This document shows positions 32,560 through 53,701 of a stretch of 64,000 nt of DNA, piece after piece (position 1 is the first letter of the stretch; each line of letters starts with the position of its first letter). Made by a program: the position numbers and the translations under genes. Source of the DNA: Candidatus Magasanikbacteria bacterium RIFCSPHIGHO2_01_FULL_33_34. GTDB lineage: Bacteria > Patescibacteriota > Patescibacteriia > Magasanikbacterales > UBA922. The notes below the pieces were generated by a model. That model saw nothing but the letters and a program-made list of their open reading frames with translations. It did not search any database and was not told the origin of the DNA. The stretch covers positions 122,102-186,101 of the forward strand of contig MFPS01000009.1 of assembly GCA_001782825.1 (NCBI GenBank), written 5' to 3'.

Positions 32560-32560
32560 T

Positions 32561-33058: not shown

Positions 33059-33064
33059 ATAAAA

Positions 33065-33526
33065 TTATCCAGCAAAATCATCCCAACAACTTTCATCTTC
33101 CAGACAATCAAAGCGATCAGAACTTTGAGGTTCTTGAACAGCTTTCTGTAAACCTGAAGCAACAAAACTAGTGATTGCATAGGACAAAACTACTATAAAC
33201 AGTCCTATTACTGCACCACGCATTGTAGCTGATGCTTTTTCAATCTTTTCTGATCTACCACGAGCAATTATAAACCAATATGATGCCATCGCAATCAATA
33301 TAATAAAAATTGAGCCAATAAACCCTAAAAATATCTTTATAACTGAAGCTATGGTAACTTGAGGTGCGACCGCATCAGTATAACCTGCACTAGTCTTGCC
33401 AGCATTCAATTGGCCAAGTACTTTATCATTTAAACTTCCAGCTTGAACAACATTTGTAAATAATAAAGTACTTACAAATAAAATGACTATACTAAATATA
33501 AATTTATATACACTTTTTTGTTGCAT
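33065..33526 (-). CDS. VirB2/TrbC-like small secreted protein, paralog 2
   Basis: Start moved to MQQKSVYKF (ATG at 33526) to remove the overlap. Module ASYWFIIARGRSEKIEKASATMRGAVIGLFIVVLSYAIT, with a Cys-containing acidic tail. Confidence 0.6.
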   Translation of the reverse strand: MQQKSVYKFIFSIVILFVSTLLFTNVVQAGSLNDKVLGQLNAGKTSAGYTDAVAPQVTIASVIKIFLGFIGSIFIILIAMASYWFIIARGRSEKIEKASATMRGAVIGLFIVVLSYAITSFVASGLQKAVQEPQSSDRFDCLEDESCWDDFAG

Positions 33527-33530
33527 AATA

Positions 33531-33947
33531 TTAAAGCGATTCCTCAGATGGCGCAGTTTCAAGCAAAATCCTTGGAACAATAAAGAATGTAATACTGTAT
33601 GCACTAACAGCAATCACCAAACCAATCACTGAAGCGCGAATTATATTTTTTGCTTTATCAACTTGCGCTTCTTCACCACGGGCAGTCATCCAAAGAAAAC
33701 CAGCATAAACTGTCAAACTCATAAATATGATACCAGAAAATGACATCAATATTTTTACAACCGTACCCAATGTAGCTGCAAAAGTTGTTTCACTAGTATT
33801 TTCATCATATTGAGCAGCTTTGGCAGCATCACGTAAAAGTGAATTTGAATTAGATGAAGTTCCAAAACCAATATTTGGTTGAGCAAAAATAACTGTCGGT
33901 ACAAAAATTAAACTTAATAAAGTTATAAAAAATAATATTTTTTTCAT
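33531..33947 (-). CDS. VirB2/TrbC-like small secreted protein, paralog 3
   Basis: 138 aa. Signal peptide VIFAQ. Module VYAGFLWMTARGEEAQVDKAKNIIRASVIGLVIAVSAYSIT. Confidence 0.65.
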   Translation of the reverse strand: MKKILFFITLLSLIFVPTVIFAQPNIGFGTSSNSNSLLRDAAKAAQYDENTSETTFAATLGTVVKILMSFSGIIFMSLTVYAGFLWMTARGEEAQVDKAKNIIRASVIGLVIAVSAYSITFFIVPRILLETAPSEESL

Positions 33948-33956
33948 AAATATATG

Positions 33957-34340
33957 TTATTTATTTAAAGCCCCAGCTACCAGGAAAGTAATAGCATAAG
34001 CCGACAATACAAGCACAAGTCCAATAACAGTTCCTTTTATAATTGATTTTGCTTTGTTAACTTGATCTTCTTCACCCCTAGCTGTCATCCACAAAAATCC
34101 AGCATATACCATAAGCAACAAAAACATAAGACCAACCATAGACAATGCTACATTTATAACTCGTCCACTAATAGTCCCCAAACTATCAGATGCTTCAAAT
34201 CCAGCTTGACCACGAACAGTTTCCAAAGGACTATTTGTACCACCAAAAGCATTCTTAAGACCTTGGGCAGAAACAATTTGTGGTAAAACTACACTACTCA
34301 ATAAAACTATTATTATAATTATTTTTTTTATTGAAAACAT
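33957..34340 (-). CDS. VirB2/TrbC-like small secreted protein, paralog 4
   Basis: 127 aa. Signal peptide IVSAQ. Module VYAGFLWMTARGEEDQVNKAKSIIKGTVIGLVLVLSAYAIT. Confidence 0.65.
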   Translation of the reverse strand: MFSIKKIIIIIVLLSSVVLPQIVSAQGLKNAFGGTNSPLETVRGQAGFEASDSLGTISGRVINVALSMVGLMFLLLMVYAGFLWMTARGEEDQVNKAKSIIKGTVIGLVLVLSAYAITFLVAGALNK

Positions 34341-34348
34341 ATATATAA

Positions 34349-34717
34349 TTAATTTTCTAAAACGCCACCCAATAAAACTGTGATTGCATAAGATGCCAGC
34401 ACTACAATCAAACCTATTATAGCAGCAATTACAGTATTTTTTGCTTTCTTAATTTTATCCTCACTACCACTTGCCATCATCCAACTAAAACCTCCATAAA
34501 AAACCAAAATAAAAAATAATAAACCAACCGCAGTCAAACTTCCTTTTATCATACTACCAAATGTTCCACTAACACTCTCATTGGTAATACCTGCTTTCCC
34601 GGCTACTTTACCTAAATTACCACTAGCACTATTCAATGTGTATGCTGTTGCAAAATCTGCTTGAAAAAAAGAACACAAAATTATGATAAAACAAATATTT
34701 CTTAAAAATTTCTTCAT
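34349..34717 (-). CDS. VirB2/TrbC-like small secreted protein, paralog 5
   Basis: 122 aa. Module FYGGFSWMMASGSEDKIKKAKNTVIAAIIGLIVVLASYAIT. Confidence 0.65.
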   Translation of the reverse strand: MKKFLRNICFIIILCSFFQADFATAYTLNSASGNLGKVAGKAGITNESVSGTFGSMIKGSLTAVGLLFFILVFYGGFSWMMASGSEDKIKKAKNTVIAAIIGLIVVLASYAITVLLGGVLEN

Positions 34718-34733
34718 AAAAATTTACTAGCTA

Positions 34734-35228
34734 CTACGGACAAGCGCAAAACAAACCTCCAGAATTATTATCAACACAAGCTCTACCACCACATTCTGCT
34801 GATGAAGCTGATACTGTAGTACAAGGCTCAGTTGTTACACAACTACTATTTTGTGGTGTAGGCTCAGTAGTAGGTTCTCCACTAATAGCTCTAAATACAA
34901 AAGTAGTTATCGCATACGAGGCTACCACAATAATCAAACCAATCACAGCGGCCTTGATAGTACCCAATGCTTTATCAGTTTGCTGTTCATTACCACGAGC
35001 TATCATCCAAATAACACCACCATATATCATCAATAACAAAAATAATACACCAACCATAGTTAAGGCTGCCCCGACAACACTCCCAATAATATCTACTGGT
35101 GAGCTACCAGATACCGCCCCTTTCAAGCCTGAAACATCGGCAGTTTTGTCTAAACCATAATTTGCATAAACAGTTCCAGTACCAAATAAAGAAACAATGA
35201 TTGATAAAGTGATAATTATTTTTTTCAT
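34734..35228 (-). CDS. VirB2/TrbC-like small secreted protein, paralog 6, with Cys-rich C-terminal tail
   Basis: 164 aa. Module IYGGVIWMIARGNEQQTDKALGTIKAAVIGLIIVVASYAIT, then a tail with 6 Cys. Confidence 0.65.
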   Translation of the reverse strand: MKKIIITLSIIVSLFGTGTVYANYGLDKTADVSGLKGAVSGSSPVDIIGSVVGAALTMVGVLFLLLMIYGGVIWMIARGNEQQTDKALGTIKAAVIGLIIVVASYAITTFVFRAISGEPTTEPTPQNSSCVTTEPCTTVSASSAECGGRACVDNNSGGLFCACP

Positions 35229-35236
35229 AAATTTTA

Positions 35237-35857
35237 TTACTTAGGGATACAACAGACATTATCTGTCCCACCAGTACAATAACCAACCAAGGCTGTACCA
35301 GATACACAATCTGATGGATTACTACATTCAAATCTATCTCCACACTGGCTCGTACATAAACTATCATCATTTGAAATACACACATTTGCAGTTGGACTAC
35401 AAGATACAAGACTTGTACCAAAATCACATGGCTCAGTATCACTACAAGCAACCACCGTCAAACCATCTAGTCTATTTACACACTGTACAGAAGCACCAAT
35501 AGAACGAAAGATTAATCCTACAATCACATAAGAACCTAATACAATCACCAAACCAATTACTGCTGAAACGATTGTTTTGGTAGCTTTATCTGTTTGTTGT
35601 TCATTTCCTCTAGCCGTCATCCATATTATACCACCATATATAGTCAAAAGAAAGAATATAACACTTACAAAAGCAAGCGCTCCACCTATTACTTTTCCAA
35701 TCACTTCACTAGGAGTTCCAACATTCATTGATTTTGCAGAAGCTACCGACTTCAATCCATACTCACTATTTGATTGCGCATATATTGAATCTACAGATAC
35801 CAAAAAAAATCCGATGGCTGAAAAAAAAATAATTATCAAAATAATTAATTTTTTCAT
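35237..35857 (-). CDS. VirB2/TrbC-like small secreted protein, paralog 7, with long Cys-rich C-terminal extension
   Basis: 206 aa. Module IYGGIIWMTARGNEQQTDKATKTIVSAVIGLVIVLGSYVIV, then a roughly 90-aa Cys-rich domain. Confidence 0.65.
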   Translation of the reverse strand: MKKLIILIIIFFSAIGFFLVSVDSIYAQSNSEYGLKSVASAKSMNVGTPSEVIGKVIGGALAFVSVIFFLLTIYGGIIWMTARGNEQQTDKATKTIVSAVIGLVIVLGSYVIVGLIFRSIGASVQCVNRLDGLTVVACSDTEPCDFGTSLVSCSPTANVCISNDDSLCTSQCGDRFECSNPSDCVSGTALVGYCTGGTDNVCCIPK

Positions 35858-35858
35858 A

Positions 35859-36254
35859 TTAAAAATAATAAAAAAAGCCTCTGTGCGTCGCTTGAAATAA
35901 ACTCTTCAAAACAAAGCTAGTAATTGCATACGAACTCATTATTATTGCCAATCCGATAGAAGCTCCCCAAATAATTTTTTTGGCTTTATTTACTTTTTCA
36001 TCATTTCCCATAGATGTCATCCATAAAAAGCCAGCATACAACATCAAAACCATTGTTCCAATTCCAAGAAACCCTAAAACAGTCTGAATTATAGAACCAA
36101 TACTATATCTAATATCCCTATTTTCAAGTCCAGAATACCGAGCATAATTAACACCCAATAAATCATCTTCTGTAGCTACAACTGGACTAATAACAAAAAA
36201 TCCTAGTGATATAAAAAATAATAGGGAAAAAATAATGTATCTTTTTTTTTGCAT
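35859..36254 (-). CDS. VirB2/TrbC-like small secreted protein, paralog 8
   Basis: Start at MQKKRYII (36254). Module LYAGFLWMTSMGNDEKVNKAKKIIWGASIGLAIIMSSYAIT. Confidence 0.6.
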   Translation of the reverse strand: MQKKRYIIFSLLFFISLGFFVISPVVATEDDLLGVNYARYSGLENRDIRYSIGSIIQTVLGFLGIGTMVLMLYAGFLWMTSMGNDEKVNKAKKIIWGASIGLAIIMSSYAITSFVLKSLFQATHRGFFYYF

Positions 36255-36295
36255 ATAAAATATTTGTTTATACAAACAAATGTTTGCATATATAA

Positions 36296-36356
36296 ACAAA
36301 TAGGGCAGGGCTCCTAAAGCAAGGTTTTTCCCTTACATCAGGGGCCCTGCCCTTTA
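36296..36356 (-). terminator. GC-rich hairpin terminator after pilin-like paralog 9
   Basis: On the coding strand: GGGCAGGGCCCC...GGAGCCCTGCCC followed by a T-rich run. A strongly GC-rich stem in an AT-rich background. Confidence 0.6.
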
Positions 36357-36368
36357 ATAATTTGTTTC

Positions 36369-36764
36369 TTATGTTCCGTATCCAGTTGCTGTTCCAAGTT
36401 GTACAAGTACAAAACTTGAAATTGCGTAAGCACTCAAGATAACTGCAAGACCTACAACACCAGCGATGATGATTTTTCTAGCTTCACCAACTCCTTCATC
36501 GTTACCACCAGCTGTCATCCATTTAAAACCACCGTAAAGTACTATTACTAAAGCGATTATACCTAAAAGGCTGAGAGCTACATTGATAATAGAAGCAATT
36601 GTTGTTCTTAAATCTTGATTTCCAAGACGACTAACAGTACCGTAAGTCAAACCAAAATCAGCTTCAATAGAACCAGCTAATGCAGCTGGGGCCAAAGCCA
36701 AACTAAATACCATTGCAGCTAAAACTGAAAGTCCTACCTTGTATTTTAGAATTTTCGATAACAT
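36369..36764 (-). CDS. VirB2/TrbC-like small secreted protein, paralog 9 (candidate major subunit)
   Basis: 131 aa. Module LYGGFKWMTAGGNDEGVGEARKIIIAGVVGLAVILSAYAIS. The only gene here with a strong SD (GGAGGTGA, 7 nt before the ATG), plus a strong terminator. Confidence 0.7.
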   Translation of the reverse strand: MLSKILKYKVGLSVLAAMVFSLALAPAALAGSIEADFGLTYGTVSRLGNQDLRTTIASIINVALSLLGIIALVIVLYGGFKWMTAGGNDEGVGEARKIIIAGVVGLAVILSAYAISSFVLVQLGTATGYGT

Positions 36765-36891
36765 ATTCTCACCTCCCTTCCTATTATAGATTCATTTTTC
36801 ATAGTTAAATTATACTACAAATACTTTAATTAAACAACATTAGTGTGGATAATAATTTAACTATACAATCCTACTTAAAAAATTTTATTTT

Positions 36892-37281
36892 TTATGTGCC
36901 ATAACCAGTTGCGCTACCCAGACTAGTCAATACAAAACTAGAAATTGCATAAGCACTCAAAACTATTGCCAATCCAACTACACCAGCTATAATCGCTTTT
37001 CTACCTTGACCCGCTTGTTCATCATTACCACCAGACACCATCATCTGAAAACCACCATATAATACACCCACTAATGCCAATATACCTAAAAGTCCCAAAA
37101 TAACATTAATAATTGAAGCAATCGTTGAACGCACATCTTGATTCCCCAGACGACTAACAGTACCATAAGTCAAACCAAAATCTTCTTCAATAGAACCAGC
37201 TAACACAGTTGGTGTTAAAACTAAACTAAATATTACCAAAATTAAAGTCGCAAATATATTTAATTTTATTTTTTTATTCAT
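36892..37281 (-). CDS. VirB2/TrbC-like small secreted protein, paralog 10 (near-duplicate of paralog 9)
   Basis: 129 aa. Near-identical to paralog 9 over most of its length (AGSIEEDFGLTYGTVSRLGNQDVRSTIASIINV...). No SD. Confidence 0.65.
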   Translation of the reverse strand: MNKKIKLNIFATLILVIFSLVLTPTVLAGSIEEDFGLTYGTVSRLGNQDVRSTIASIINVILGLLGILALVGVLYGGFQMMVSGGNDEQAGQGRKAIIAGVVGLAIVLSAYAISSFVLTSLGSATGYGT

Positions 37282-37298
37282 AACATTTTTAATAAAAA

Positions 37299-37685
37299 TT
37301 ATTTGGCTATGACCCCAATTAATGCGCTTAAAATTGCATACGAAGAAAATATCACAAGAATACCTATGGTTGCATAAAGCATTGTCTTGGTACCTTTATC
37401 AACTCTCTGTTCATTTCCTGCAGAAGTGAGCCATAAAAATCCACCAATAACAAAAACTATCAACGTTACTGATCCCAAAATTCCTAAACTAGTATCTATT
37501 ATTTTCTTTATCAAAGGATTAATAACCGTACCATCTTCACCGGTAACCATCTCTCCCAAAGGATTTTGTAATCTTGATACACCACTACTATCTTCTTGGG
37601 CATTAACAGATACTGAACCATACACACCCAAAAACATAAAAGAAAAAATCATATAGCCTATTATATATTTTTTGAATATTTTCAT
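37299..37685 (-). CDS. VirB2/TrbC-like small secreted protein, paralog 11
   Basis: Start at MKIFKKYII (37685). Module VIGGFLWLTSAGNEQRVDKGTKTMLYATIGILVIFSSYAIL. Confidence 0.6.
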   Translation of the reverse strand: MKIFKKYIIGYMIFSFMFLGVYGSVSVNAQEDSSGVSRLQNPLGEMVTGEDGTVINPLIKKIIDTSLGILGSVTLIVFVIGGFLWLTSAGNEQRVDKGTKTMLYATIGILVIFSSYAILSALIGVIAK

Positions 37686-37692
37686 AAAAAAT

Positions 37693-38514
37693 TTATTTAA
37701 ATACATTTAATCTATCTGATACACCAAGCACATCAAGCAAAAAACCAACTATAAAATAACCAGCAAAGACTATTACCATACCAATCACTGACGCCACCAA
37801 AACATTTTGTCCTTGTTTGAAACGCTCTGCATTACCAAATGACAATACCATTAAACCACCACCAAAAACAAAGAAAGCAAAAACAATTGCGCCTATATAT
37901 TTGAATATACTACCAGCTGCATTTGAAACAATGACCACTATATCATTTGGGCTATTACAAGTACCCAATTTTGCGCATTTTGGCAATGTTCCTAATATGC
38001 CAGCTTTAAAATCATAATCATATACATTATCCAAATATTGCAAGGCTTCACTATAACAAGTCTCAGCATCTTCATTCCATTTACAAACATCACTTACAAT
38101 ACAATCTGTCTTTTTTTGCATATATGAACAATCCGAATTGGAAAATCTAGATAAACAACTACCATCTGTTGTAAAAAAACAACCAGATCTACGTATACAA
38201 AGATTTTTAGGCAAATCATTGCAGGTAACACAGTAATTTTCTGTACAAGATACACCCACTTCAACTCTATAAAAAGACTGGTCAACATACTTTATCAATG
38301 TATCACAAGGCAATACCTCCATATCATCGCGTCTACAACCAACTGGTTTCAAACTACTCTGGCTCGGTTCTGTACCTTCTGATATTAAACAGCAACCTAT
38401 AGATTCAGCTTTTAATTCTTGAGGACTAAATATAATTGCAACAAAAAAAACCAAAAACACAAAGCTAAATTTTTGTATTTTATGAATAAATTTTTTTTTA
38501 TTGATAAATAACAT
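37693..38514 (-). CDS. Cys-rich ectodomain protein with C-terminal VirB2-like two-helix anchor (subfamily A)
   Basis: 273 aa. Signal peptide, then a roughly 170-aa domain with about 20 Cys, then IGAIVFAFFVFGGGLMVLSFGNAERFKQGQNVLVASVIGMVIVFAGYFIV. Confidence 0.6.
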   Translation of the reverse strand: MLFINKKKFIHKIQKFSFVFLVFFVAIIFSPQELKAESIGCCLISEGTEPSQSSLKPVGCRRDDMEVLPCDTLIKYVDQSFYRVEVGVSCTENYCVTCNDLPKNLCIRRSGCFFTTDGSCLSRFSNSDCSYMQKKTDCIVSDVCKWNEDAETCYSEALQYLDNVYDYDFKAGILGTLPKCAKLGTCNSPNDIVVIVSNAAGSIFKYIGAIVFAFFVFGGGLMVLSFGNAERFKQGQNVLVASVIGMVIVFAGYFIVGFLLDVLGVSDRLNVFK

Positions 38515-38520
38515 TTTATA

Positions 38521-39903
38521 TTACATTGTTTGTTGAATAATTTTTACAGCATTTCCTATTAAACCAATATTTCTCTTGAGTTCACTTTCTTTTTCTCCAA
38601 CTGGTTTTAAGTAATTGCTAAATAATTCATCAAATGCTTTTTCTGCTGAAATAATATTTTTACCTCTATACCAATTTTCTGCTGTGATTGCTTGTAATGC
38701 AAACGGGCCAATATTCACATCTTCTTTTTGTACCAATAATTGCTCGCGCAAAGGACTTGGTTGACCAGTTTTTTTGGAATATTTTTCAACATTTTCAGGC
38801 AATGTTATGAATCTAACAAAATCCCATGCCTCTGATTTGTGTTGCGATTTTGCAACCACAGACTCAACCCAATAATTAGCGACGTTTGAAGGATCTGCAG
38901 AATTCAACTGTGGTACTGGCTCAATATCAAATTTAATCTGAGGGCCTCTAGCTTTAAGCCGAGGGAGATCATAGGCAAAACCAAAATAAAATACGCTTTT
39001 ACCACGCGCAAATTCATCCAATGAATTCGCCATTTTTGCATTCCAGGAATATACATCTTTTGTTGGTCTGGCAAAATCAGAATAAAATTGTAATGTTTGA
39101 AGTACAGGATGATCACTTGACCTGTCAGTCAACCCATTAGCAAAAGTTACTCTATCTCCCTGTGACATAATGAGACTATTTTGCATCATCAACAAAGAAA
39201 TTATATCAAAAGAATTATCAATATTTTCCCCAAGACCTAGGGCAACTCCTGATTGGATAATATTACCATCACGATCATATTTGGTTGATTTTTTGACAGC
39301 ACTAGAAAACTCATCCCAAGTTTTTGGTGGAATTGGAATTCCAGCTTTATCAAGCAATTCTACATTGTAATACATCGCCAATGTATCCATAAACAAAGGA
39401 AGTCCATAAACTTTGTCACCTACAATAATATCCTGCGCTACCGTTGTCACATATGATTTTTTGATATAATCAATTGTTGGCATTGCATTATTTTCTGTTG
39501 AAATAACAGTTTTTGGTTTAAATTCACCTTCAGTAAAAACATTAGTTACTTGAACATTATCAGGCATAGGATCAAGCCTATTCAAATATTTGTTAACCCA
39601 TCTAGGATGCATAGAAACAATATCCGGAGCATTATCATCAGCCAAAGCATTGGCAAACAAACTATCAAATTCATCATATCTAACTTGTTTTACTTTTATA
39701 GTTACATAACTATGCAAATTTTGATATGAGACTGCAAATGATCTCAACGCATCAACATCATTATAAACAGTCCAGTAATTTATTGTGATTGGTTTTACTG
39801 CTTCTTGTTGTTCTTGTGTAAGACCTTTACAACCCAACCCAGTCAAAACAAATATACTTATCAAAGAAAATATTATTAAGTATCTTTTATTTATTAATTT
39901 CAT
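38521..39903 (-). CDS. ABC transporter substrate-binding lipoprotein (SBP family 1, sugar-type). Orphan; no permease or ATPase gene adjacent
   Basis: 460 aa. Signal peptide with lipobox-like LTGLGC. Length and composition fit a maltose/sugar-type SBP. Confidence 0.6.
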   Translation of the reverse strand: MKLINKRYLIIFSLISIFVLTGLGCKGLTQEQQEAVKPITINYWTVYNDVDALRSFAVSYQNLHSYVTIKVKQVRYDEFDSLFANALADDNAPDIVSMHPRWVNKYLNRLDPMPDNVQVTNVFTEGEFKPKTVISTENNAMPTIDYIKKSYVTTVAQDIIVGDKVYGLPLFMDTLAMYYNVELLDKAGIPIPPKTWDEFSSAVKKSTKYDRDGNIIQSGVALGLGENIDNSFDIISLLMMQNSLIMSQGDRVTFANGLTDRSSDHPVLQTLQFYSDFARPTKDVYSWNAKMANSLDEFARGKSVFYFGFAYDLPRLKARGPQIKFDIEPVPQLNSADPSNVANYWVESVVAKSQHKSEAWDFVRFITLPENVEKYSKKTGQPSPLREQLLVQKEDVNIGPFALQAITAENWYRGKNIISAEKAFDELFSNYLKPVGEKESELKRNIGLIGNAVKIIQQTM

Positions 39904-39908
39904 ATTAT

Positions 39909-41201
39909 TTATACAAATAAACCAAATATAAATTTAAGTATAACATAACTAGACAAAATTACTACGACACCCAAAGATGACCAAGTCATCATTTTCAAAG
40001 CTTTACTAGTTTTCTCAGAATTCCCTCTAGCAGTCATCCACATAAATCCACTACCAACAAACATAGCGAGCGCCACACTGCCAGTGAAACCTAATATATA
40101 TTCTATAATCTTACCAACCAAAGTTTGAATCTGTTCTGTTTTGGTCCCAGAACCCAATTTTAGTTTATTGAGATTAGCAATACTATCTCCAACATCACAA
40201 CCCAACAACCCCGGTCTTTCACCTGTCTTTGGGCAAAGGCCTTCACATTCACGTGCTATATATTCTCTACATTTTGTTAAGGCTTCTCCAGTACCTTCTC
40301 CTTCTTTTTTACATACTTCATCAATTTGTGTCTGATCTTCACAAAAACTTAACACAGGTTTATCTTCAACCGCTTCTAATACAGTTTTGCAAGTAACATC
40401 AAACCAAAAATCTGGAAATAATTGATCAGAAAAATTAACTAAACCACATTTATCATAAGTAAAATTTGTTTGTATCCATTCTTTATCAAGACATTTTTTT
40501 TCTTCAACTGGCTGTTCTACTAGTGTTGGTATACCACAAAAACCATGACCATCTTCAGTAAAACTTAATTCACAATTAACTTGATTGACAGATCCACCAC
40601 AACCAAAACCCCCTTCATCATCTGTATTAATAAAACTACAATTAGCATTTGGAATTATTCTGATTACTCGTGTAGGTATTGGTTGGAATGCTAGTGGACC
40701 AATCCCAGGGGTAGTAGGCATACTACCAAGTATAGGACTACAATTGTCCTTAAACAGTCCCTCATCAAACGTATAACCACCAATTGTACTGGCAAACTCT
40801 CTAACAAATTTTTGTATTGCTTCAGTAAAACTAAAACAAGCAAAGCCACTTTCTGGAAATGCAATACTACCCAAATTTCCTGCAAGCGCACGATAACCAG
40901 ATGCCTCAAGATTCCTACGAACCCCATGACATGACGGGCAATCATCAGTACTTATACCAGTCGGAGGGACTTGCATATTTCTTATACTGATACTACAGCT
41001 ACATTGCCCAGCATCAGTCTTACTTCTGACAACCACTGCTTCTCCCAAAGAAGTAGTATATTCAGGTGGTGTAGCAGATTGAAAATTAGCGCATTGTTGA
41101 TTGGTCTGCGCATTAACTTTTACTCCAAAAAATAATCCTGTTATCAAAGAAGTAAAAAATAATATAGTAATAAATATTTTTTTTGAAAAAAATATACTCA
41201 T
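39909..41201 (-). CDS. Cys-rich ectodomain protein with C-terminal VirB2-like two-helix anchor (subfamily B)
   Basis: Start at MSIFFSKK (41201). About 30 Cys in the ectodomain. C-terminus GSVALAMFVGSGFMWMTARGNSEKTSKALKMMTWSSLGVVVILSSYVIL. Confidence 0.6.
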   Translation of the reverse strand: MSIFFSKKIFITILFFTSLITGLFFGVKVNAQTNQQCANFQSATPPEYTTSLGEAVVVRSKTDAGQCSCSISIRNMQVPPTGISTDDCPSCHGVRRNLEASGYRALAGNLGSIAFPESGFACFSFTEAIQKFVREFASTIGGYTFDEGLFKDNCSPILGSMPTTPGIGPLAFQPIPTRVIRIIPNANCSFINTDDEGGFGCGGSVNQVNCELSFTEDGHGFCGIPTLVEQPVEEKKCLDKEWIQTNFTYDKCGLVNFSDQLFPDFWFDVTCKTVLEAVEDKPVLSFCEDQTQIDEVCKKEGEGTGEALTKCREYIARECEGLCPKTGERPGLLGCDVGDSIANLNKLKLGSGTKTEQIQTLVGKIIEYILGFTGSVALAMFVGSGFMWMTARGNSEKTSKALKMMTWSSLGVVVILSSYVILKFIFGLFV

Positions 41202-41205
41202 AAAT

Positions 41206-42240
41206 TTATTCTGGTCTAAATTCAATACTGACACCAAATGATTTTATAATAAAATCTGTTATAAAATACGCGCCAAACACAATGATTAACCCTATCACAG
41301 CTGCCACTATTATGCCCTTACCTTTGGCTACCTTCTCTTGATTTCCAAAAGACAAAACCATAGTAATACCACCTATAATGAAAAAAATAAAAGCAAGAGC
41401 GCCCACATATTTGAATATTTCTTTGGCAAACATAAGTGGTACACCTAGCAAATCCCCAATACTATTACAAGTTCCAGCGACTGCACATGGTGGCATAAAT
41501 TTGCCACTATCTCTAGTACCATAAGTTTCATTTATATATTGTTGATATTCATCAATACACGTAGTTGATTCAAAATCCCATTTACATTTGTTACTTCTAG
41601 CACAATCAAATTCACTATTTATGTGTGGACATTCACTACCTCTCTCTGCTTCAAAACATGTTCCTTGTCCTTCAGACCAAAAACAAGCTCCTGTGTTATT
41701 ACAAGATCGTTTATCATTCTTGTTATGACATTCATCAATTCCATTGTATTTTCTCCAATAATCTACAGCAGTATTACATATATCTGAATATTTAGGTGGA
41801 GGCACATAATCCAAACATTTCATTTCAGTCTCCATATACTGTGGACATTCAGTTGGCAAACCTTCTCCTCCCATAACTCCTGAAATAAACTCAACTTGAT
41901 CAAGTTTATCTGATATACCACTCAAACCTCTACCAACTATAGCCCCAAAATCAAAAAGACCAAAATATTCATTGCAATTACTTTTTGTTTGTACACCTAT
42001 TTTACATGGCTTTGCTGTTGTTTTTAAACGACACCCTGATAAACTCCAATCACTTGTACACCTGTCCATACCTACTACATCCCCTATCCATGTTTTTCCA
42101 CACCAATTCGTCCAACTGCTTTTCTCTGTTCTAATTTCATTAATACAACAAACTGGCTCACTTTCACCTTGAGCAAAAACAATATTTGGACTAAAAAATA
42201 ATCCCATTACAAATATGCTGATTATTAAAAACTTTTTCAT
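41206..42240 (-). CDS. Cys-rich ectodomain protein with C-terminal VirB2-like anchor (subfamily A paralog)
   Basis: 344 aa. C-terminus VGALAFIFFIIGGITMVLSFGNQEKVAKGKGIIVAAVIGLIIVFGAYFIT is homologous to 37693-38514. The N-terminal Cys-rich domain is divergent. Confidence 0.6.
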   Translation of the reverse strand: MKKFLIISIFVMGLFFSPNIVFAQGESEPVCCINEIRTEKSSWTNWCGKTWIGDVVGMDRCTSDWSLSGCRLKTTAKPCKIGVQTKSNCNEYFGLFDFGAIVGRGLSGISDKLDQVEFISGVMGGEGLPTECPQYMETEMKCLDYVPPPKYSDICNTAVDYWRKYNGIDECHNKNDKRSCNNTGACFWSEGQGTCFEAERGSECPHINSEFDCARSNKCKWDFESTTCIDEYQQYINETYGTRDSGKFMPPCAVAGTCNSIGDLLGVPLMFAKEIFKYVGALAFIFFIIGGITMVLSFGNQEKVAKGKGIIVAAVIGLIIVFGAYFITDFIIKSFGVSIEFRPE

Positions 42241-42245
42241 AAAAA

Positions 42246-43373
42246 TTAACTAAAAATACTGAAAATAAAATCCAAAATCACATAACTAGACAAGATTACC
42301 ACAACACCCAAAGATGACCACGTCATCATTTTCAAAGCTTTGCTAGTTTTTTCAGAATTCCCTCCTGCAGTCATCCACAAAAATCCACTGCCAACAAACA
42401 TAGCGAGCGCCACACTACCGGTGAAGCCCAATATATACTCTATAACCCTACCTAAAAATGTTTGGATTGGTTGATCCCCTTCAATATTAAGTTGATTTAA
42501 AGCTCCATAAAGTTTTGCCACATCACAACCCAAATTACCCTTTTCTGAACCATCAGCACATTTTCCTTCACATTCATTTATCAATCTTTCCACACAATTA
42601 TCTAATTCATCTCCAGAAATTCCATCTTTACTTTTTTTACAATACTCTGATATTTTATCAACTGAACAATTTTCAAATAAATTCTCATCAATATCATCTT
42701 TAGTATGTAGTTTACAAGTCAAACTAAAATCTAATACATCATTATGCACTAGCCCCATCCAACTACAACCTCGTTCACTACAGATTCTATTTATCTCCTC
42801 AGTCCAATTTATAATTAAATTAAAATCATAAGTATCACCTTCACAATTTGATTCATTTATAATACCTTCAGTAGTACCTAATCGTTCTCTCATGCTTTGT
42901 TCTGTAGCAATCAAATCACCAACCAAAAAATTACAATTACTATTTATCATTGCAGCTCTAAAAGCATCGAACAAATCAAACCTAGAATTCAAAGCATAAA
43001 CTGTTGTACTCTGTCCTTGACAATATTGAGTTGATGGCCCTAATTCTTCATAATTAGGACTGTTTACTCCTATTACTTTTGCTCTACTGATTTGCAATCC
43101 ACATTCACAATATCCTGTTTCATATAATTTTTTTTTATATTCAACATATGCAACACATTCTGCTCTTCTGGCATCAGTACAATCACTACCATAATCCTCC
43201 AATATATTACATATATCTGTGTAATACTCTTGAGCACCCACAGAATCACAATCTTCATTGTAGCCTGGTTGATTTGTACTATCTAATTGCGCAGAAACAT
43301 TTTGAGTAAATACAAAAAATAAAAGCGCTATAAAAAAAGCTTTTAAAAAATAAATTTTTTTTCTTGCCTTCAT
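42246..43373 (-). CDS. Cys-rich ectodomain protein with C-terminal VirB2-like anchor (subfamily B paralog)
   Basis: 375 aa. C-terminal roughly 90 aa nearly identical to 39909-41201 (EGKCADGSEKGNLGCDV...GSVALAMFVGSGFLWMTAGGNSEKTSKALKMMTW). The N-terminal domain is divergent. Confidence 0.6.
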   Translation of the reverse strand: MKARKKIYFLKAFFIALLFFVFTQNVSAQLDSTNQPGYNEDCDSVGAQEYYTDICNILEDYGSDCTDARRAECVAYVEYKKKLYETGYCECGLQISRAKVIGVNSPNYEELGPSTQYCQGQSTTVYALNSRFDLFDAFRAAMINSNCNFLVGDLIATEQSMRERLGTTEGIINESNCEGDTYDFNLIINWTEEINRICSERGCSWMGLVHNDVLDFSLTCKLHTKDDIDENLFENCSVDKISEYCKKSKDGISGDELDNCVERLINECEGKCADGSEKGNLGCDVAKLYGALNQLNIEGDQPIQTFLGRVIEYILGFTGSVALAMFVGSGFLWMTAGGNSEKTSKALKMMTWSSLGVVVILSSYVILDFIFSIFS

Positions 43374-43388
43374 TTTATTAAATTATTT

Positions 43389-44237
43389 TTACAACAACCC
43401 TTCCTTCTTGGCGAAATGAATAGTTGTTTTTAATAAGGCTAATTTGTTTCCGGTATCAAAATATTGACCATCATATTCATAAGCATAAAATGGTTTTTTT
43501 TGTGTCAATGAATTGGCTGCGTCAGACAACCATATCTCACCATCTTTACCTTTGCCTTGATCCTCTAAATGACTCCAGATATCCTTGGTAAAAATATATC
43601 TCATACCACCGACAATTAATCCAAATGGTGAAGTCTTGGATACTGCTGGTTTTTCTACAAATTTTTCCACCCGAAAAATTTTTTTGTCTTTTGTTCCTTT
43701 TGCGTAGACATTGCCATATTTGGTCATTTCTTGTGGGTCTTCAATTCGCTGTACACCAATCACTGATGAACCAACCTCATTAAAAACTTTCACCAATTGT
43801 TTGATAACTGGAACTTCCGCATCAATGATACTGTCACCATCAGAAAAAGCAAAAGCATCGTCTCCTATAAAATCCTTGGCACACAATAGCGCATGTCCAT
43901 TACCTTTTGGTTCACTTTGACGAGTATAAAAAAACCGTACTTTTTTACAAAGATCAATCAAAGGTTGAACTCTATCCAATTTTCCTTTGCTCTCCAAGAA
44001 CCTTTCAAGCGCCTCATCTCGATCAAAATGATCCTCAATAGCTCGCTTTTGAGAGCTAGTTACAAACATAATATCTGTGATTCCACTCTCTGCCATTTCC
44101 TCAACAATATATTGAACTACCGGCTTATCAAGCACCGGCAACATTTCTTTTGGCATGGCCTTGGTAGCTGGCAAAAATCTAGTCCCCACCCCAGCAACGG
44201 TAATAACTCCTTTGGTTATTTTTGTTTGTTTTGGCAT
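43389..44237 (-). CDS. galU: UTP--glucose-1-phosphate uridylyltransferase
   Basis: VITVAGVGTRFLPATKAMPKEMLPVLDKPVVQYIVEE, the canonical GalU N-terminus. Confidence 0.9.
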   Translation of the reverse strand: MPKQTKITKGVITVAGVGTRFLPATKAMPKEMLPVLDKPVVQYIVEEMAESGITDIMFVTSSQKRAIEDHFDRDEALERFLESKGKLDRVQPLIDLCKKVRFFYTRQSEPKGNGHALLCAKDFIGDDAFAFSDGDSIIDAEVPVIKQLVKVFNEVGSSVIGVQRIEDPQEMTKYGNVYAKGTKDKKIFRVEKFVEKPAVSKTSPFGLIVGGMRYIFTKDIWSHLEDQGKGKDGEIWLSDAANSLTQKKPFYAYEYDGQYFDTGNKLALLKTTIHFAKKEGLL

Positions 44238-44307
44238 ATCTTTTATCAGTTATTAACACAGATATTATAGCAAAAAAAATATTAAAAATAAAGAGTCTAA
44301 AATTAAA

Positions 44308-45603
44308 TTATTGTATTGTCTCCAGCCAATTGCCAATAAGCCAACCACCACCCGGACCACTAGTAAAATTCAAATTCACCAAACCAGATTCATAAATAAT
44401 AGTTGAATTATTTTCAACTTGCATTTGATAGGCCGTAGCTTCTTTCAAAGTAGCTGAATTTTGTATAAACAATAATCCATAAGGCGCATATAATATTCCC
44501 CGAAGTTGAGTATTGTTTTGCATCATTATAGCTGGATCAGAAGTATCCAATTGATTAGCAGTCGTAATAAACATTATATAACTATCATTTGGAGTATTGC
44601 AGTCCACAATATCTTCATTATAACCCTCAGAACCACAAATTATTACATTATTTTTTAGATCAATATCACCATCTACTATCATAACCCCACTATTATCCCC
44701 ATAACCAGCATTCAATTCAATTCCGGCACTATTTTCCAAAACTAAATTTCCAGTTACCCATACTGTTCCATCAAATGTAAAAGTATCATCACCGTTACCA
44801 CTTATTCTTAAATCTCCATTAATCCTAACTGGCCCCAAAGAAAAATCCATATCATCAATATCCTGTGTACCAATTGTACCACCCGCAAGAGCGGCCGCTT
44901 TCCAACTATTTATTTGATCATCTGTTATAGGAAAATCTACAGTATCGGGATCCGCACTACCCGGAAATTCAGCTCCATTAAAAGTATTACCACCACTATC
45001 AACCGCATAATATGCATCACCATCAACAACAGTATCTGTAATTGTATGAGCACGAACATCTCCACCAACATTAAAATTATCAACCAGACCAGATGGACCA
45101 GCAACCCAAACATCACCAGTTGCATTAGCAGAGTTCACTCCAACAATATTACCATTTGAATATATACTCCCTTCAATTGTACTATCATTTTTCATTAAAA
45201 TTCCACCTTGACCCACCTGCATACCATAATTAAAACTAATCCCTTCTGTTGCTGGCACTAAACTAACTTCCACACCTCTCACAAATGAATCCTTGTCTGC
45301 AAATGATTCTATAACATAAACTCCATCATCCAAACCAAGACCTATTTCAGCCGTAGCACCTGCCAATGACAAAGTATATTCCCAATCATAAGACAAATCC
45401 GGATCAATCATTCGAAGTAACATATCTTCCAATCCTGCCTCAGCCGTATAATAACTTTGCGCTGAACCAACTACATTGCGAATTAATTTTTCTCTGGATA
45501 TCATCGATGAAGTTAAACTCATCACAATAATAAGACCAACTATGGTTGCCAAAAGCACACTGACAATTGCTGAATATCCTTTATTATTTAATAATTTACC
45601 CAT
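44308..45603 (-). CDS. Large pilus-associated protein (N-terminal pilin-like TM helix, Gly/Asn/Asp-rich beta-rich body; PilY1/tip-adhesin-like)
   Basis: 431 aa. N-terminus MGKLLNNKGYSAIVSVLLATIVGLIIV resembles a degenerate prepilin leader. First gene of a four-gene prepilin-type run. Confidence 0.45.
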   Translation of the reverse strand: MGKLLNNKGYSAIVSVLLATIVGLIIVMSLTSSMISREKLIRNVVGSAQSYYTAEAGLEDMLLRMIDPDLSYDWEYTLSLAGATAEIGLGLDDGVYVIESFADKDSFVRGVEVSLVPATEGISFNYGMQVGQGGILMKNDSTIEGSIYSNGNIVGVNSANATGDVWVAGPSGLVDNFNVGGDVRAHTITDTVVDGDAYYAVDSGGNTFNGAEFPGSADPDTVDFPITDDQINSWKAAALAGGTIGTQDIDDMDFSLGPVRINGDLRISGNGDDTFTFDGTVWVTGNLVLENSAGIELNAGYGDNSGVMIVDGDIDLKNNVIICGSEGYNEDIVDCNTPNDSYIMFITTANQLDTSDPAIMMQNNTQLRGILYAPYGLLFIQNSATLKEATAYQMQVENNSTIIYESGLVNLNFTSGPGGGWLIGNWLETIQ

Positions 45604-45607
45604 AATA

Positions 45608-46147
45608 TTAATATGATCTTAATGATGCGGTTGTTGTCAAAGTAACACTACTCTTTTCTTGAATTTCGGTCGACGGTGAATCATACGAAGCAGTGATTGA
45701 AACTCTCACCGCTTGATAGCTACCAGCAGAATTGATATGAGTGAATGTCAAATCATCAATTTTTGTTTTTTGAGATACAATTATTTCTGAGACAACTCCC
45801 TCTCTCTTCATATAAAGCCTATCCCCATCAACAAAAAAATCAATAAAAGTAATTGTTTCACCAACAGGCACATTATTTGTACTCTCCAAACTTAACTGCC
45901 CAGGACTTGAATCAAAAATACTTGTCGGTGTATAAATATTTGATGCATGCCTAATTTCTTGAGCAATGACTTCAAGCGCGCTTCTAGTATTTCCTAGGAC
46001 TTCACCTCTAGCTTGAATATTTAAATTATTTCTGACCAATTGAGGGAGAAAAGAAGCTACCATAGTCGTAATCAAAAGCATAATAAATATATACATCATC
46101 ATTTCTATCAAAGTAAATCCTTTTTTATTTTTTTTCAAAAAAAACAT
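45608..46147 (-). CDS. Type IV pilin/pseudopilin (prepilin-type N-terminal cleavage/methylation domain)
   Basis: KKGFTLIEMMMYIFIMLL: G-F-T-L-I-E with Glu at +5. Confidence 0.8.
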   Translation of the reverse strand: MFFLKKNKKGFTLIEMMMYIFIMLLITTMVASFLPQLVRNNLNIQARGEVLGNTRSALEVIAQEIRHASNIYTPTSIFDSSPGQLSLESTNNVPVGETITFIDFFVDGDRLYMKREGVVSEIIVSQKTKIDDLTFTHINSAGSYQAVRVSITASYDSPSTEIQEKSSVTLTTTASLRSY

Positions 46148-46150
46148 AAA

Positions 46151-46672
46151 CTAATTATTCAAAAAATTAGTTAAATAAGTTTCCAATACAACACTATTAG
46201 TTACACTTTTCTCCACCCAAGAAACTGTAACTACCACCCTCTTTGTTTTGGGGTCATCAGTGCCAACAACTGCAATATCATCATTTGCATCACGATTAAC
46301 CGCATAAATCGATATAGTTCTCGTAAAAGTTCCATTAATCAATGGCTGAGAAATAGTAGATAAAGTCCACAAATCACCCACCAAAACTGGATAATACACA
46401 GTACCACTAGTCAAAGTCGCTATATCATCAGTCCAACTAACATTTTTTATTGTTCTAACTATTTCAATACCCTCCTGAGCAAATTGCACTGCCTCAGTCT
46501 TTCTCAATGCTCTATGCATAGTTTGATTTGAAAAGAAAATTATACTATATATTGAACTGAAAAACATAAGAGCGATAGCGATAGCAATCACTACTTCTAC
46601 AATACTAAATCCAGAATTATTTTTTTTATTATTTTTATTTTGAATAAAATATTTTTTAAAAATTTTCAACAT
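46151..46672 (-). CDS. Type IV pilin/pseudopilin (prepilin-type N-terminus)
   Basis: NNSGFSIVEVVIAIAIALMFF. Start trimmed to MLKIFKKY (46672) to avoid overlap with the next gene. Confidence 0.7.
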   Translation of the reverse strand: MLKIFKKYFIQNKNNKKNNSGFSIVEVVIAIAIALMFFSSIYSIIFFSNQTMHRALRKTEAVQFAQEGIEIVRTIKNVSWTDDIATLTSGTVYYPVLVGDLWTLSTISQPLINGTFTRTISIYAVNRDANDDIAVVGTDDPKTKRVVVTVSWVEKSVTNSVVLETYLTNFLNN

Positions 46673-46676
46673 ATTA

Positions 46677-47534
46677 TTATTGAATAGACATTGTACCACC
46701 AAATACACCTACACTAGGTACACCATCTGCTGTAAACGATGCAATAGCATTGCCATCAACAGAAACATCTAGCATCTTTGTATTATATCTACCATCACGA
46801 TGTATACACAAAACAGTATCAAATTCATCCAATGAGTGAGTGTGTACCCTCAAAGTCTGAGGCTCACCATTTACATCAATAGTCCCAGTCCAATCAAACT
46901 CTGTTTCATCTGGATTAAAATAATCTGCCATTACAACAGTCTCATCAACATCTACTGTATCATCAAAATGAAGTTCTAAATCAGATGCACCTTGCAAACT
47001 CCACCCCAGTGCAAAATGAATATGTCTAGAATCTATTACTCTTGTATCTGTCAAATTTATTGTTCCCGCAAGACCTACTCGTCCAGAAGGCGATATTTTT
47101 ATTACTCTATTTTCATCATTGTCATCCACCAGTCTCAAAATAATATCACCTACATGGTCAGTTTTACCTGTAATCCGATCAAAAACGACTGACACGCCAA
47201 AAGTATTACCCCAAATATCTGTATACTCAACATTATCTGAAAAATAAAAAACTTCATTATTTGGATCATTTACATCCCAATCAAATCCCTTATATATGGC
47301 ATAATAAGTCGGCTCAAAACGAACCCCATATTGATCATTCTCCTTGGAAGAAAGAGTTCTTTCTGATGCTAAATGTAATGCAGAAATCACATCATTTACC
47401 GAAGTATTCAATTCTAATCTTTTGACAAACGATCTATAACTTACAAAACCACCAACTACCAAAATACTTGCTGTTGAAACAACCAATAAAATTTCTACAA
47501 GTGAAAAACCTCGTTTATTTAAACATTTAAGCAT
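46677..47534 (-). CDS. Type IV pilin/pseudopilin (prepilin-type N-terminus)
   Basis: True start is MLKCLNKRGFSLVEILLVVSTASILVVGG (ATG at 47534). The upstream 18 codons of the ORF-track call lie in the AT-rich palindromic leader. Confidence 0.75.
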   Translation of the reverse strand: MLKCLNKRGFSLVEILLVVSTASILVVGGFVSYRSFVKRLELNTSVNDVISALHLASERTLSSKENDQYGVRFEPTYYAIYKGFDWDVNDPNNEVFYFSDNVEYTDIWGNTFGVSVVFDRITGKTDHVGDIILRLVDDNDENRVIKISPSGRVGLAGTINLTDTRVIDSRHIHFALGWSLQGASDLELHFDDTVDVDETVVMADYFNPDETEFDWTGTIDVNGEPQTLRVHTHSLDEFDTVLCIHRDGRYNTKMLDVSVDGNAIASFTADGVPSVGVFGGTMSIQ

Positions 47535-47650
47535 ATAAACATATAAACATTCCATCGTTCCCAATAACAAATAAATTATTTGATGCAAATTTTATTAAAA
47601 ACAAAATATGTTTATATGTTTGTATGTTTACATGTTAAGTATTATATCAC
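47535..47650 (-). promoter_or_regulatory. Conserved palindromic AT-rich leader A (TATAAT, then CATACAAACATATAAACATAT, then AATGTTTATATGTTTATATG overlapping the start codon)
   Basis: Minus-strand reading: GATATAATACTTAACATGTAAACATACAAACATATAAACATATTTTGTTT ... GGAATGTTTATATGTTTATATGCTTAAATG. A near-identical arrangement is found at 62456-62592. Confidence 0.5.
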
Positions 47651-47691
47651 AAAAAACAAAAAACCGCCCTTTCAGACGATTTTTCTGTTTT

Positions 47692-47931
47692 TTATTTTGG
47701 AACAAAGGCTAGCAATCCGGCGATTCTTGCCTGTTTGATAGCTTTTGTAACTTTGCGTTGATGAAACGCACATAGTCCACTGCGTCTTCTTGGAGCAATT
47801 TTCATATATGATGAAACAAATCTGCGTAGAGTTTGAATATCTTTATAATCAATTGCTTTTTTATTGTTAACACAGTAATGACATTGTCTTTCAGTTTTTT
47901 TCATGATATGTCTATTAAGTAATAATTTCAC
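47692..47931 (-). CDS. rpsR: 30S ribosomal protein S18
   Basis: 79 aa. RRRSGLCAFHQRKVTKAIKQARIAGLL. Confidence 0.9.
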   Translation of the reverse strand: MKLLLNRHIMKKTERQCHYCVNNKKAIDYKDIQTLRRFVSSYMKIAPRRRSGLCAFHQRKVTKAIKQARIAGLLAFVPK

Positions 47932-47940
47932 TTGTTTCTA

Positions 47941-48378
47941 TTAAAATGGAATATCTTCTACTTTTACTTCGTCAATTGGTTCTTCTTGATAAGCAGGTCC
48001 AGAATCTTGGGTAGAGACAGTATTATCAGATGCAGGTGAACCACCAGTTCTACCACCATCTAACATTATCATATTGTCTACTACAATTTCTGTTTTATAT
48101 TTTTTGACACCATCAGTTCCAGTCCAATCACTAGTTTGCAATCGTCCTTCTACATAGACTCTCTTACCTTTTGACAAATATTGTCCTGCAATTTCGGCAA
48201 TCTTTCCCCAAAGGACACAATTGTGATATTCTGGCTTCTCTTGTTTTTGGCCAGCAGAATCAGTCCAAACTCTATTGGTTGCAATACCTAATTTTGTTAC
48301 AGTACGTCCACTAGGGGTGCTTTTTACTTCAGGGTCACGAGTCAAACGACCCAAAATTGTTGCTCTATTTAAATCCAT
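47941..48378 (-). CDS. ssb: Single-stranded DNA-binding protein
   Basis: 145 aa. OB-fold N-terminus LNRATILGRLTRDPE and C-terminal acidic tip DIPF. Confidence 0.9.
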   Translation of the reverse strand: MDLNRATILGRLTRDPEVKSTPSGRTVTKLGIATNRVWTDSAGQKQEKPEYHNCVLWGKIAEIAGQYLSKGKRVYVEGRLQTSDWTGTDGVKKYKTEIVVDNMIMLDGGRTGGSPASDNTVSTQDSGPAYQEEPIDEVKVEDIPF

Positions 48379-48428
48379 ATTAATATTTTATGATTTAAGA
48401 TTGAGTTAAGCCAAATATTTATGACTTA

Positions 48429-48980: not shown

Positions 48981-49195
48981 AATTTAATGTATATTCTTAT
49001 TAATCCGCTTTCTTGTCTATCCTTGGGATCGACCGACAAACAATAATCACAAATAATATAGTGGAAATAATATACCATTATGATATAGAAATGTCAATAG
49101 TTAACCATAATTTAATCTAAATAATAAACTAAAATACAAAATAGCAAAATTAGTAAAAATATGATATAATTTATTTGAATAAATATTGCTATTTT

Positions 49196-50923: not shown

Positions 50924-50927
50924 TTTT

Positions 50928-52046: not shown

Positions 52047-52055
52047 AATTATAAA

Positions 52056-53159: not shown

Positions 53160-53172
53160 ATAATTTTATACC

Positions 53173-53700: not shown

Positions 53701-53701
53701 T

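Follow-up and report, generated by a model that had tools for sequence, protein, structure and literature searches.

The genes described here lie in a window of 64,000 nucleotides (64 kb) from Candidatus Magasanikbacteria bacterium RIFCSPHIGHO2_01_FULL_33_34 (contig MFPS01000009.1, positions 122,102 to 186,101), and all coordinates are those of the window. Positions 37693-43373 hold four large minus-strand open reading frames (ORFs) for pilin-like proteins, called B', A', B and A, and a fifth gene that encodes a solute-binding protein (SBP). A first-pass annotation had placed the four ORFs at these positions, and it gave B 431 residues where 430 are counted from its ATG. The best explanation for the four genes is that they are oversized members of the VirB2-like 'T4SS_pilin' family, which occurs as tandem arrays in Patescibacteria. 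The features of the region, in the direction of transcription, are as follows.

42246-43373, minus: B', 375 aa; signal peptide at residues 1-28
42474-43289, minus: B' ectodomain, residues 29-300; 18 cysteines
42249-42473, minus: B' PF18895 hairpin anchor, residues 301-375; PF18895 32.1 bits, TrbC 20.5 bits
41206-42240, minus: A', 344 aa; signal peptide at residues 1-23
41455-42171, minus: A' ectodomain, residues 24-262; 20 cysteines, starting with vicinal CC
41557-41730, minus: tandem four-cysteine repeat of A', residues 171-228; two copies of C-x8-C-x5-C-x-W-x6-C
41209-41454, minus: A' anchor, residues 263-344; PF18895 31.8 bits
39909-41201, minus: B, 430 aa from the ATG at 41201; signal peptide at residues 1-31
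40137-41108, minus: B ectodomain, residues 32-355; 20 cysteines
39912-40136, minus: B anchor, residues 356-430; PF18895 31.0 bits
38521-39903, minus: solute-binding lipoprotein gene (SBP_bac_8/SBP_bac_1), 460 aa; SBP_bac_8 E 1.5e-23
37693-38514, minus: A, 273 aa; signal peptide at residues 1-36
37945-38406, minus: A ectodomain, residues 37-190; 16 cysteines
37696-37944, minus: A anchor, residues 191-273; PF18895 16.4 bits, under the cut-off

Hydropathy segments and cysteine counts bear out, for all four proteins, the layout that had first been described. Each has a Sec-type signal peptide, a hydrophilic, cysteine-rich ectodomain of 154-324 aa and two C-terminal hydrophobic helices. The signal peptides end in AxA-like sites (VFA/Q, VSA/Q, VNA/Q and LKA/E, with the slash at the site). 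The loop between the helices is short and basic and reads TA(R/G)GNSEKTSKALK or SFGN(Q/A)E(K/R) in the sequences. For B there is an alternative upstream start, a TTG at 41237 that would give 442 aa, and the public gene call has 441 aa. A strain variant of B' (P0013) lacks the SDC at residues 63-65 (window 43181-43189), which leaves an odd number of 17 cysteines, and it also carries N104S; both changes fall within the ectodomain.

Along the direction of transcription the order is B'-A'-B-[SBP]-A. The earlier description of two subfamilies in alternation is right about the subfamilies, but the alternation is interrupted by the SBP gene, whose product has a visible lipobox (LGC). Consecutive genes are separated by gaps of 4-15 nt or overlap by 14 nt. 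Such spacing makes it almost certain that the four large genes and the SBP gene are co-transcribed.

The C-terminal modules of B, A' and B' match Pfam family PF18895 (T4SS_pilin, VirB2-like) with 31-32 bits, where the gathering score is 26.6 bits. A aligns with a family of A-type proteins in which 10 of 10 members match PF18895 at E <= 0.1. Matches to TrbC/VirB2 are sub-threshold, with TrbC E values of 4e-4 to 5e-4 for B' and for the small protein p129. Sub-threshold matches to NCBIfam NF045849, the pilin-like Mbov_0395 family of a Mycoplasma integrative and conjugative element, are found for the anchors of B, B', p131 and p206 (E 1e-7 to 2e-4). These matches support a genuine VirB2-like (PF18895) identity of the anchor, and purifying selection on it is strong. 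The genes p129, p131 and p206 belong to a group of small pilin genes downstream of A.

32561-37706, minus: eleven more PF18895 genes (Pfam), tightly spaced, downstream of A
36892-37281, minus: p129, PF18895 array member
36369-36764, minus: p131, PF18895 array member
35237-35857, minus: p206, 206 aa; PF18895 module first, then a C-terminal tail with 12 cysteines
34734-35228, minus: p164, 164 aa; PF18895 module first, then a C-terminal tail with 6 cysteines

Because the eleven downstream ORFs match PF18895, A, B, A' and B' form the upstream end of a 15-gene array on the minus strand (32561-43373) that is broken once, by the SBP gene. This arrangement agrees with the published definition of such arrays, which is at least two pilin genes in tandem or with one non-pilin gene between them (PMC12102498). 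The size of the four proteins does not agree with the family. PF18895 pilins are typically single modules with precursors of about 110-170 aa, whereas these proteins have 273-430 aa. In p164 and p206 the layout of A and B is reversed, with the cysteine-rich part behind the module. A terminator-like hairpin at 32503-32534 lies just past the last gene of the array; apart from this hairpin, a promoter and terminator scan gave counts near the shuffle expectation.

Two of the small genes, p131 and p129, are paralogous and share a 300-nt repeat with 77% identity. The only long gaps between array genes, of 69 and 127 nt, flank this pair. They are the best-conserved genes of the locus, and p131 retains 85% amino acid identity between the window and a related locus (L003). 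Among three moderately related genomes (L007, L008 and L009, with GalU 87-91% identical), p131-type pilins are 92-99% identical with a synonymous divergence (dS) of 0.15-0.75, while neighbouring genes are saturated. This high conservation and low dS suggest that p131 and p129 are likely to be the highly expressed major subunit.

The ectodomains of A, B, A' and B' contain 16, 20, 20 and 18 cysteines, fewer than the 20-30 first reported, and no cysteine lies outside them. Cysteine accounts for 6.2-10.4% of ectodomain residues compared to 0.65% in 40 other genes of the window (binomial P <= 1e-12), or 10-16 times background. The many CxxC and CxC spacings noted earlier amount to only 1-2 per protein, and CxxC alone occurs 0-1 times. 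An even number of cysteines is found in 110 of 126 homologous N-terminal ectodomain representatives (p = 2e-18), which is strong statistical evidence that the ectodomain cysteines pair as disulfides. Genomes of the candidate phyla radiation (CPR) are enriched in an MdbA-like oxidoreductase and VKOR for extracytoplasmic disulfide formation (10.1101/335083), so a route to such bonds exists.

Cysteine-rich domains might instead bind metal. No clustered CxxC or CxxCxxC of the Fe-S or zinc-ribbon type is present in the ectodomains, and the sole metal-type match is to Zn_ribbon_TFIIB at E 0.05-0.08. A ferredoxin-like or other housekeeping fold, which the first-pass annotation had named as a possible outcome, was sought and no known fold was found. 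The metal-cluster reading is rejected in view of the scarcity of CxxC, the signal peptide and the even cysteine parity. These three features and the positive inter-helix loop support a predicted head that is extracellular, disulfide-bonded and not metal-binding. In family alignments, cysteine columns are 0.53-0.80 identical, compared to 0.13-0.18 for other ectodomain columns and 0.50-0.59 for the anchors. Family A ectodomains open with a vicinal CC straight after the signal peptide, and family B ectodomains open with CxC. The column identities outline a conserved scaffold of probable disulfides between hypervariable loops.

Sequence-profile searches of the PDB found no known fold for the ectodomains and no solved structure of any PF18895 protein. 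An AlphaFold2 model of A' built from a 10-sequence alignment has a mean predicted local distance difference test score (pLDDT) of 57.5 and is confident only at residues ~165-235 and in the hairpin (about 80-85). The model of B' (39 sequences) reaches a mean of 69.6, with 82-93 in a membrane-proximal helical module (residues 230-290), ~90 in the hairpin and 55-73 in an alpha/beta head. The tandem four-cysteine repeat is the membrane-proximal, best-conserved and best-predicted part of the A-family ectodomain (pLDDT ~80). A and A' each contain two copies of its motif, C-x8-C-x5-C-x-W-x6-C, where 0.01-0.02 would be expected after shuffling. The repeat weakly resembles the PSI domain (PF01437), a small extracellular module that is rich in disulfides and has a C...C.W...C signature. 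The excised A' repeat matches PSI at E 0.004 with 17.9 bits, below the 23.1-bit cut-off, and only 1 of 10 A-family members has a match at E < 0.1. PSI domains have 8 cysteines and the A and A' repeats have 4 each. The PSI match is therefore treated as a weak lead and the repeat is not assigned to this family.

Within each subfamily, the last 50-90 residues had been described as nearly identical. This holds for B and B', whose anchors agree at 63 of 75 residues (54 of the last 60) with 85% nucleotide identity. A 238-nt direct repeat in these anchors is 83% identical, and the ectodomains of the two proteins share only 28% of alignable residues. It does not hold for A and A', where the gradient is weak, with 37 of 84 anchor residues and 33% of aligned ectodomain residues identical. 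The A' anchor is nearer to the corresponding anchors of other genomes (62-64%) than it is to that of A. For the B/B' anchors, nonsynonymous divergence (dN) is 0.098 and dS is 0.745, with a ratio (omega) of ~0.13. These values show that the likeness of the two anchors reflects purifying selection, and they rule out recent gene conversion as its source.

Between genomes, the anchors are 69-94% identical with omega 0.03-0.13 and carry the invariant motifs G..WMTA.GN.E and VILSSY. In the comparison of L007, L008 and L009, dN is 0.28-0.56 for ectodomains, 0.04-0.13 for anchors and 0.05-0.10 for GalU and the SBP gene. The ectodomains thus evolve 4-10 times faster than the anchors and neighbouring genes, and the picture of a variable head on a conserved pilin-type anchor is upheld, with the weak gradient of the A/A' pair as a qualification. 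The diversifying selection that had been invoked for the heads is not shown by the gene-wide dN/dS estimate. Omega is 0.13-0.34 where it can be computed and dS is saturated (above 1) elsewhere, and relaxed constraint on the loops of a fixed cysteine scaffold fits these rates equally well as diversifying selection.

The array adjoins type IV pilus genes, and its conserved upstream neighbours are the following.

43389-44237, minus: gene for a GalU-like nucleotidyltransferase
44308-47588, minus: genes for a PilX-like protein and three minor type IV pilins with an N-methyl motif

Genes for single-stranded DNA-binding protein (SSB) and ribosomal protein S6 also lie upstream on the same strand as the array. 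PilB, PilC, PilM and PilN genes are divergent from it (region 43389-55829). An inverted repeat of 28-29 nt, 86-90% complementary and with arms ~60 nt apart (window 47517-47636), covers the beginning of the first minor type IV pilin gene (46677-47588) together with the adjoining upstream sequence, and could have a regulatory function.

A search for homologues of the A and B genes in other genomes, as had been suggested, found a gene order that is conserved in at least 10 genomes, with the upstream neighbours kept in loci L001-L014. The sources are Candidatus Magasanikbacteria metagenome-assembled genomes (MAGs) and several MAGs labelled 'uncultured Gammaproteobacteria'. The shared order is type IV pilus genes, GalU, a B-type position or 'slot', SBP, an A slot, and then slots of the p135, p131, p164/p206 (cysteine tail) and p127 types. 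The VirB2-like array is adjacent to GalU and the type IV pilus genes in all related loci. Most genomes carry one B and one A gene flanking the SBP gene, and the window adds a B'-A' pair in front. The SBP gene keeps its place between the B and A slots in L002-L014; the order in L001 is GalU-B-A-SBP. The SBP is an orphan of the carbohydrate type, with no gene for an ABC permease or ATPase nearby.

Slot lengths vary enormously. Proteins of the B slot range from 137 aa (a plain pilin in L011) to 517 aa (L012) and those of the A slot from 216 to 501 aa. The p135 slot reaches 414 aa, and the C-terminal tails of the p164/p206 slot reach about 190 aa in other genomes. Given this range, the ectodomain appears to be a hypervariable insertion in otherwise orthologous pilins. 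In relatives, small genes of the 23S_rRNA_IVP/bAvd-like, GIY-YIG and PDDEXK_3 types are found by the B slot or among the minor pilin genes (L012, 4953-10196; L014, 6132-11326; L002, 6346-7128); the window contains no gene of these types. A metagenome contig (L016; ENA ERZ4903070 k141_1874808) is 99.93% identical to window positions 33923-41268 over 7346 nt and stops inside the 3' end of A'. The contig may end there because strain variation at the additional B'-A' pair, or the repetition of the anchor, broke the assembly.

Fused proteins of this kind are widespread. Word-indexed homologue searches returned only 9-11 relatives per family; the wide spread was revealed by an exhaustive search of 1.84 billion representative proteins with a hidden Markov model (HMM) of the B-family alignment, which gave 21,470 matches at E <= 1e-3 and 175 at E <= 1e-30. 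Architectures were classified for 26 proteins from the word-indexed searches and 140 new ones from the exhaustive search. An N-terminal region of more than 100 aa precedes a C-terminal pilin module in 137 of these proteins. A long C-terminal tail is present in 4, extensions at both ends in 2 and two modules in 8, and 15 are plain pilins. The fused architecture is found in over 120 of the 150 best 50%-identity clusters. The 126 N-ectodomain representatives have a median head of 181 aa with 5% cysteine. Some members are named 'pilin' at NCBI, for example, a Magasanikbacteria protein of 559 aa with 34 cysteines.

Other fusion types also exist. Big_5 is joined to PF18895 in two proteins (P0023/P0024), and relatives with C-terminal tails reach 470 aa with 36 cysteines (P0022). 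Two PF18895 hairpins occur in one polypeptide in P0011, P0026, P0037-P0039, P0045, P0054 and P0090. All of these are tandem-fused pilins, and P0045, for example, has 718 aa with 48 cysteines.

The arrays themselves are known from the literature. Arrays of 2-11 VirB2-like genes, sometimes broken by a non-pilin gene, have been reported from 383 Patescibacteria assemblies (PMC12102498). One such array, situated within the type IV secretion system (T4SS) locus of Ca. Southlakia epibionticum, is essential for that organism (PMC10633639). The function of these arrays has been termed 'completely unknown' (PMC11665869), and no adhesin of the Patescibacteria T4SS has been identified so far (PMC12102498). 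Disulfide-rich extracellular domains on a pilin module had been put forward as a class without a description. In a full-text literature search no paper was found that describes cysteine-rich ectodomains on VirB2-like pilins, and to this extent the claim stands; the VirB2-like arrays are published, and the architecture is common in databases. What is new, as far as this search showed, is the giant, cysteine-rich and slot-specific form.

A mechanism can be proposed in which the four proteins are exported by Sec and then lose their signal peptides. The two-helix hairpin would sit in the cytoplasmic membrane, with its short positive loop facing the cytoplasm according to the positive-inside rule. 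Because the loop would be cytoplasmic and the signal peptide cleaved, both termini of the hairpin would face outward, which would account for the presence of heads at the N-terminus in A and B and at the C-terminus in p164 and p206. The N-terminal domain would lie wholly outside the cell, where its 16-20 cysteines would form disulfides and provide a stable scaffold whose loops vary. The anchor is conserved beyond the needs of hydrophobicity, and slot-specifically across genomes, which argues that it engages specific machinery or partners. It is probably read by the same assembly machinery as the downstream small pilins or packs on the same partners. The small pilins p131 and p129 would form the bulk of the structure. 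The large proteins would most likely be of low abundance (minor or tip subunits) or surface-anchored, and would display a binding head for the host cell or other surfaces.

We therefore favor a reading in which the four proteins are minor or tip pilins, or hairpin-anchored surface proteins, with variable disulfide-rich binding heads that act together with the small pilins. Its probability is roughly 0.6. The receptor-binding or tip role is drawn by analogy, and we infer filament incorporation, adhesin function and host specificity in the same spirit. Several observations weigh against this reading. The match of A to PF18895 stays under the family cut-off. No experiment that we know of demonstrates a pilus made of a PF18895 protein. 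Pilins of a VirB2-type T4SS are expected close to VirB4, VirB6 and other core genes; none of these lies within the window, where Pfam assigns no ORF of at least 100 aa to a VirB4, VirB6 or VirD4 family. An estimate from published F-pilus geometry suggests that a VirB2-type filament could hardly make room for a head of 150-320 aa on each of its subunits. Finally, omega is below 1, without the positive selection expected of a host-range determinant.

A bolder proposal, possible but doubtful, is that the conserved, ordered array specifies, in a monoderm bacterium, a VirB2-type heteropolymer, either a filament or a surface complex, in which slot-specific giant pilins with their own disulfide-rich receptor-binding heads and the embedded SBP set the choice of host. 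If so, conjugative-type pilins would have given rise to a FimH-like fusion of adhesin and pilin that takes the place of the separate VirB5 tip protein or of Gram-positive adhesins, and the heads and the SBP would decide which host cell the epibiont attaches to and feeds on. In a more radical version, assembly could proceed without a T4SS and be linked in function to the type IV pilus genes next door.

Alternatively, the four proteins could be membrane-anchored surface proteins only, with the hairpin as an anchor and no filament, that serve as a variable coat or as receptors. The lack of VirB4 and VirB6 in the window, the awkward fit of large heads in a pilus wall and the orphan solute-binding lipoprotein conserved in the middle of the unit, which would suit a surface or nutrient-capture set, all speak for such a coat. 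Heads at either hairpin end (N-terminal in A and B; C-terminal in p164, p206 and P0022), as if both termini faced outward, are also in line with it. We nevertheless regard a coat as rather unlikely. The essential pilin array of S. epibionticum lies inside a T4SS locus (PMC10633639), and the family is homologous to TrbC/VirB2. The anchors are far more conserved than generic transmembrane anchors, as their identity, omega values and invariant motifs indicate, and their slot-specific subfamily signature suggests specific protein-protein contacts.

A third view holds that the cysteine-rich region is a long pro-region or secreted cargo, and that cleavage frees a soluble disulfide-rich protein (a toxin, effector or binding factor) and a pilin of normal size. 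VirB2-family pilins such as TraA, VirB2 and TrbC are processed at both ends, and long leaders are removed from TraA and VirB2, which provides a parallel. In L011 the B-slot orthologue is a plain pilin of 137 aa, so a pilin in this slot can function without the head, and a poorly predicted linker of ~30-40 aa lies between the last cysteine and the first helix. Alignments of the families (A3-A5) contain no conserved second cleavage motif before the hairpin, and no part of the heads is better conserved than the membrane-proximal cysteine modules, which are placed immediately above the hairpin in the predicted structures. Release of the head is accordingly improbable.

Antigenic or phase variation, in which B/B' and A/A' swap heads by recombination through their anchors or heads are diversified by a retroelement, could draw on the B/B' anchor repeat, the Avd-like small genes beside the B slot in L012 and L014 and the near-identical contig that breaks inside A', but is very improbable given the anchor dS of 0.75, which speaks against ongoing gene conversion, the 99.93% identity of two independent assemblies of the same population across B-SBP-A, the lack of silent cassettes, repeats of the template and variable (TR/VR) type and reverse transcriptase in 32000-48000, and the lack of an Avd-like gene in the window. 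Silent cassettes and a diversity-generating retroelement are rejected in view of the absence of such repeats in 32000-48000 and of Pfam scans, which detect no reverse transcriptase or Avd-like gene anywhere in the window.

The four proteins provide concrete candidates for the host-contact components of an essential and uncharacterized system. Ca. S. epibionticum is the sole Patescibacterium with a genome-wide essentiality survey, and VirB2-like arrays are essential there. Giant pilins with fast-evolving, disulfide-stabilized heads are obvious candidates for the missing host-recognition parts. The VirB2 hairpin can carry added domains at either end, which is unusual among conjugative-type pilins. 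The conserved slot order and the embedded SBP gene also offer a comparative framework for host range in Magasanikbacteria.

The combination of a conserved pilin module with a variable binding domain is also seen in FimH and PapG of chaperone-usher pili and in minor type IV pilins of the TcpB/CofB type and R64 PilV. This likeness is functional only. The folds and assembly pathways are unrelated, and searches revealed no similarity in sequence or structure. Pfam finds no N-methyl type IV pilin motif (PF07963) in A, B, A' or B'; the neighbouring genes at 45608-47588 have it. The Mbov_0395 family (NF045849) resembles the anchors as a VirB2-like hairpin in a monoderm conjugation system, but it is a small protein of 80 positions without an ectodomain, and scores are 21-31 bits against a 40-bit cut-off. 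VirB2, TrbC and TraA (PF04956) share a signal peptide, two hydrophobic helices with a short basic loop and weak profile similarity. In contrast to the proteins described here, they are ~70-120 aa when mature, have no extra domain, are encoded with VirB4 and VirB6 in diderm systems and are in some cases cyclized.

The closest relatives are the VirB2-like arrays of other Patescibacteria (Quinonero-Coronel et al. 2025, PMC12102498; Wang et al. 2023, PMC10633639). These have the same Pfam module, a chromosomal tandem arrangement with an occasional non-pilin interruption and highly divergent paralogues, and they likewise belong to monoderm, ultrasmall bacteria. Published arrays contain 2-11 small pilin genes, often by virB4, whereas the array described here has 15 genes and no virB4 in the window. 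Four of its products, of 273-430 aa, have cysteine-rich N-terminal ectodomains and two have cysteine-rich C-terminal tails, and the array adjoins type IV pilus genes; the papers found make no mention of ectodomain fusions. Tandem amplification and diversification of VirB2-type genes is also known from TrwL and TrwJ of the Bartonella Trw system and from the VirB2 paralogues of Anaplasma, where it is thought to broaden surface or host recognition (cited in PMC12102498). In those systems variation resides in small pilins and the tip is formed by a separate VirB5-type protein, whereas here the head is fused to the pilin module itself.

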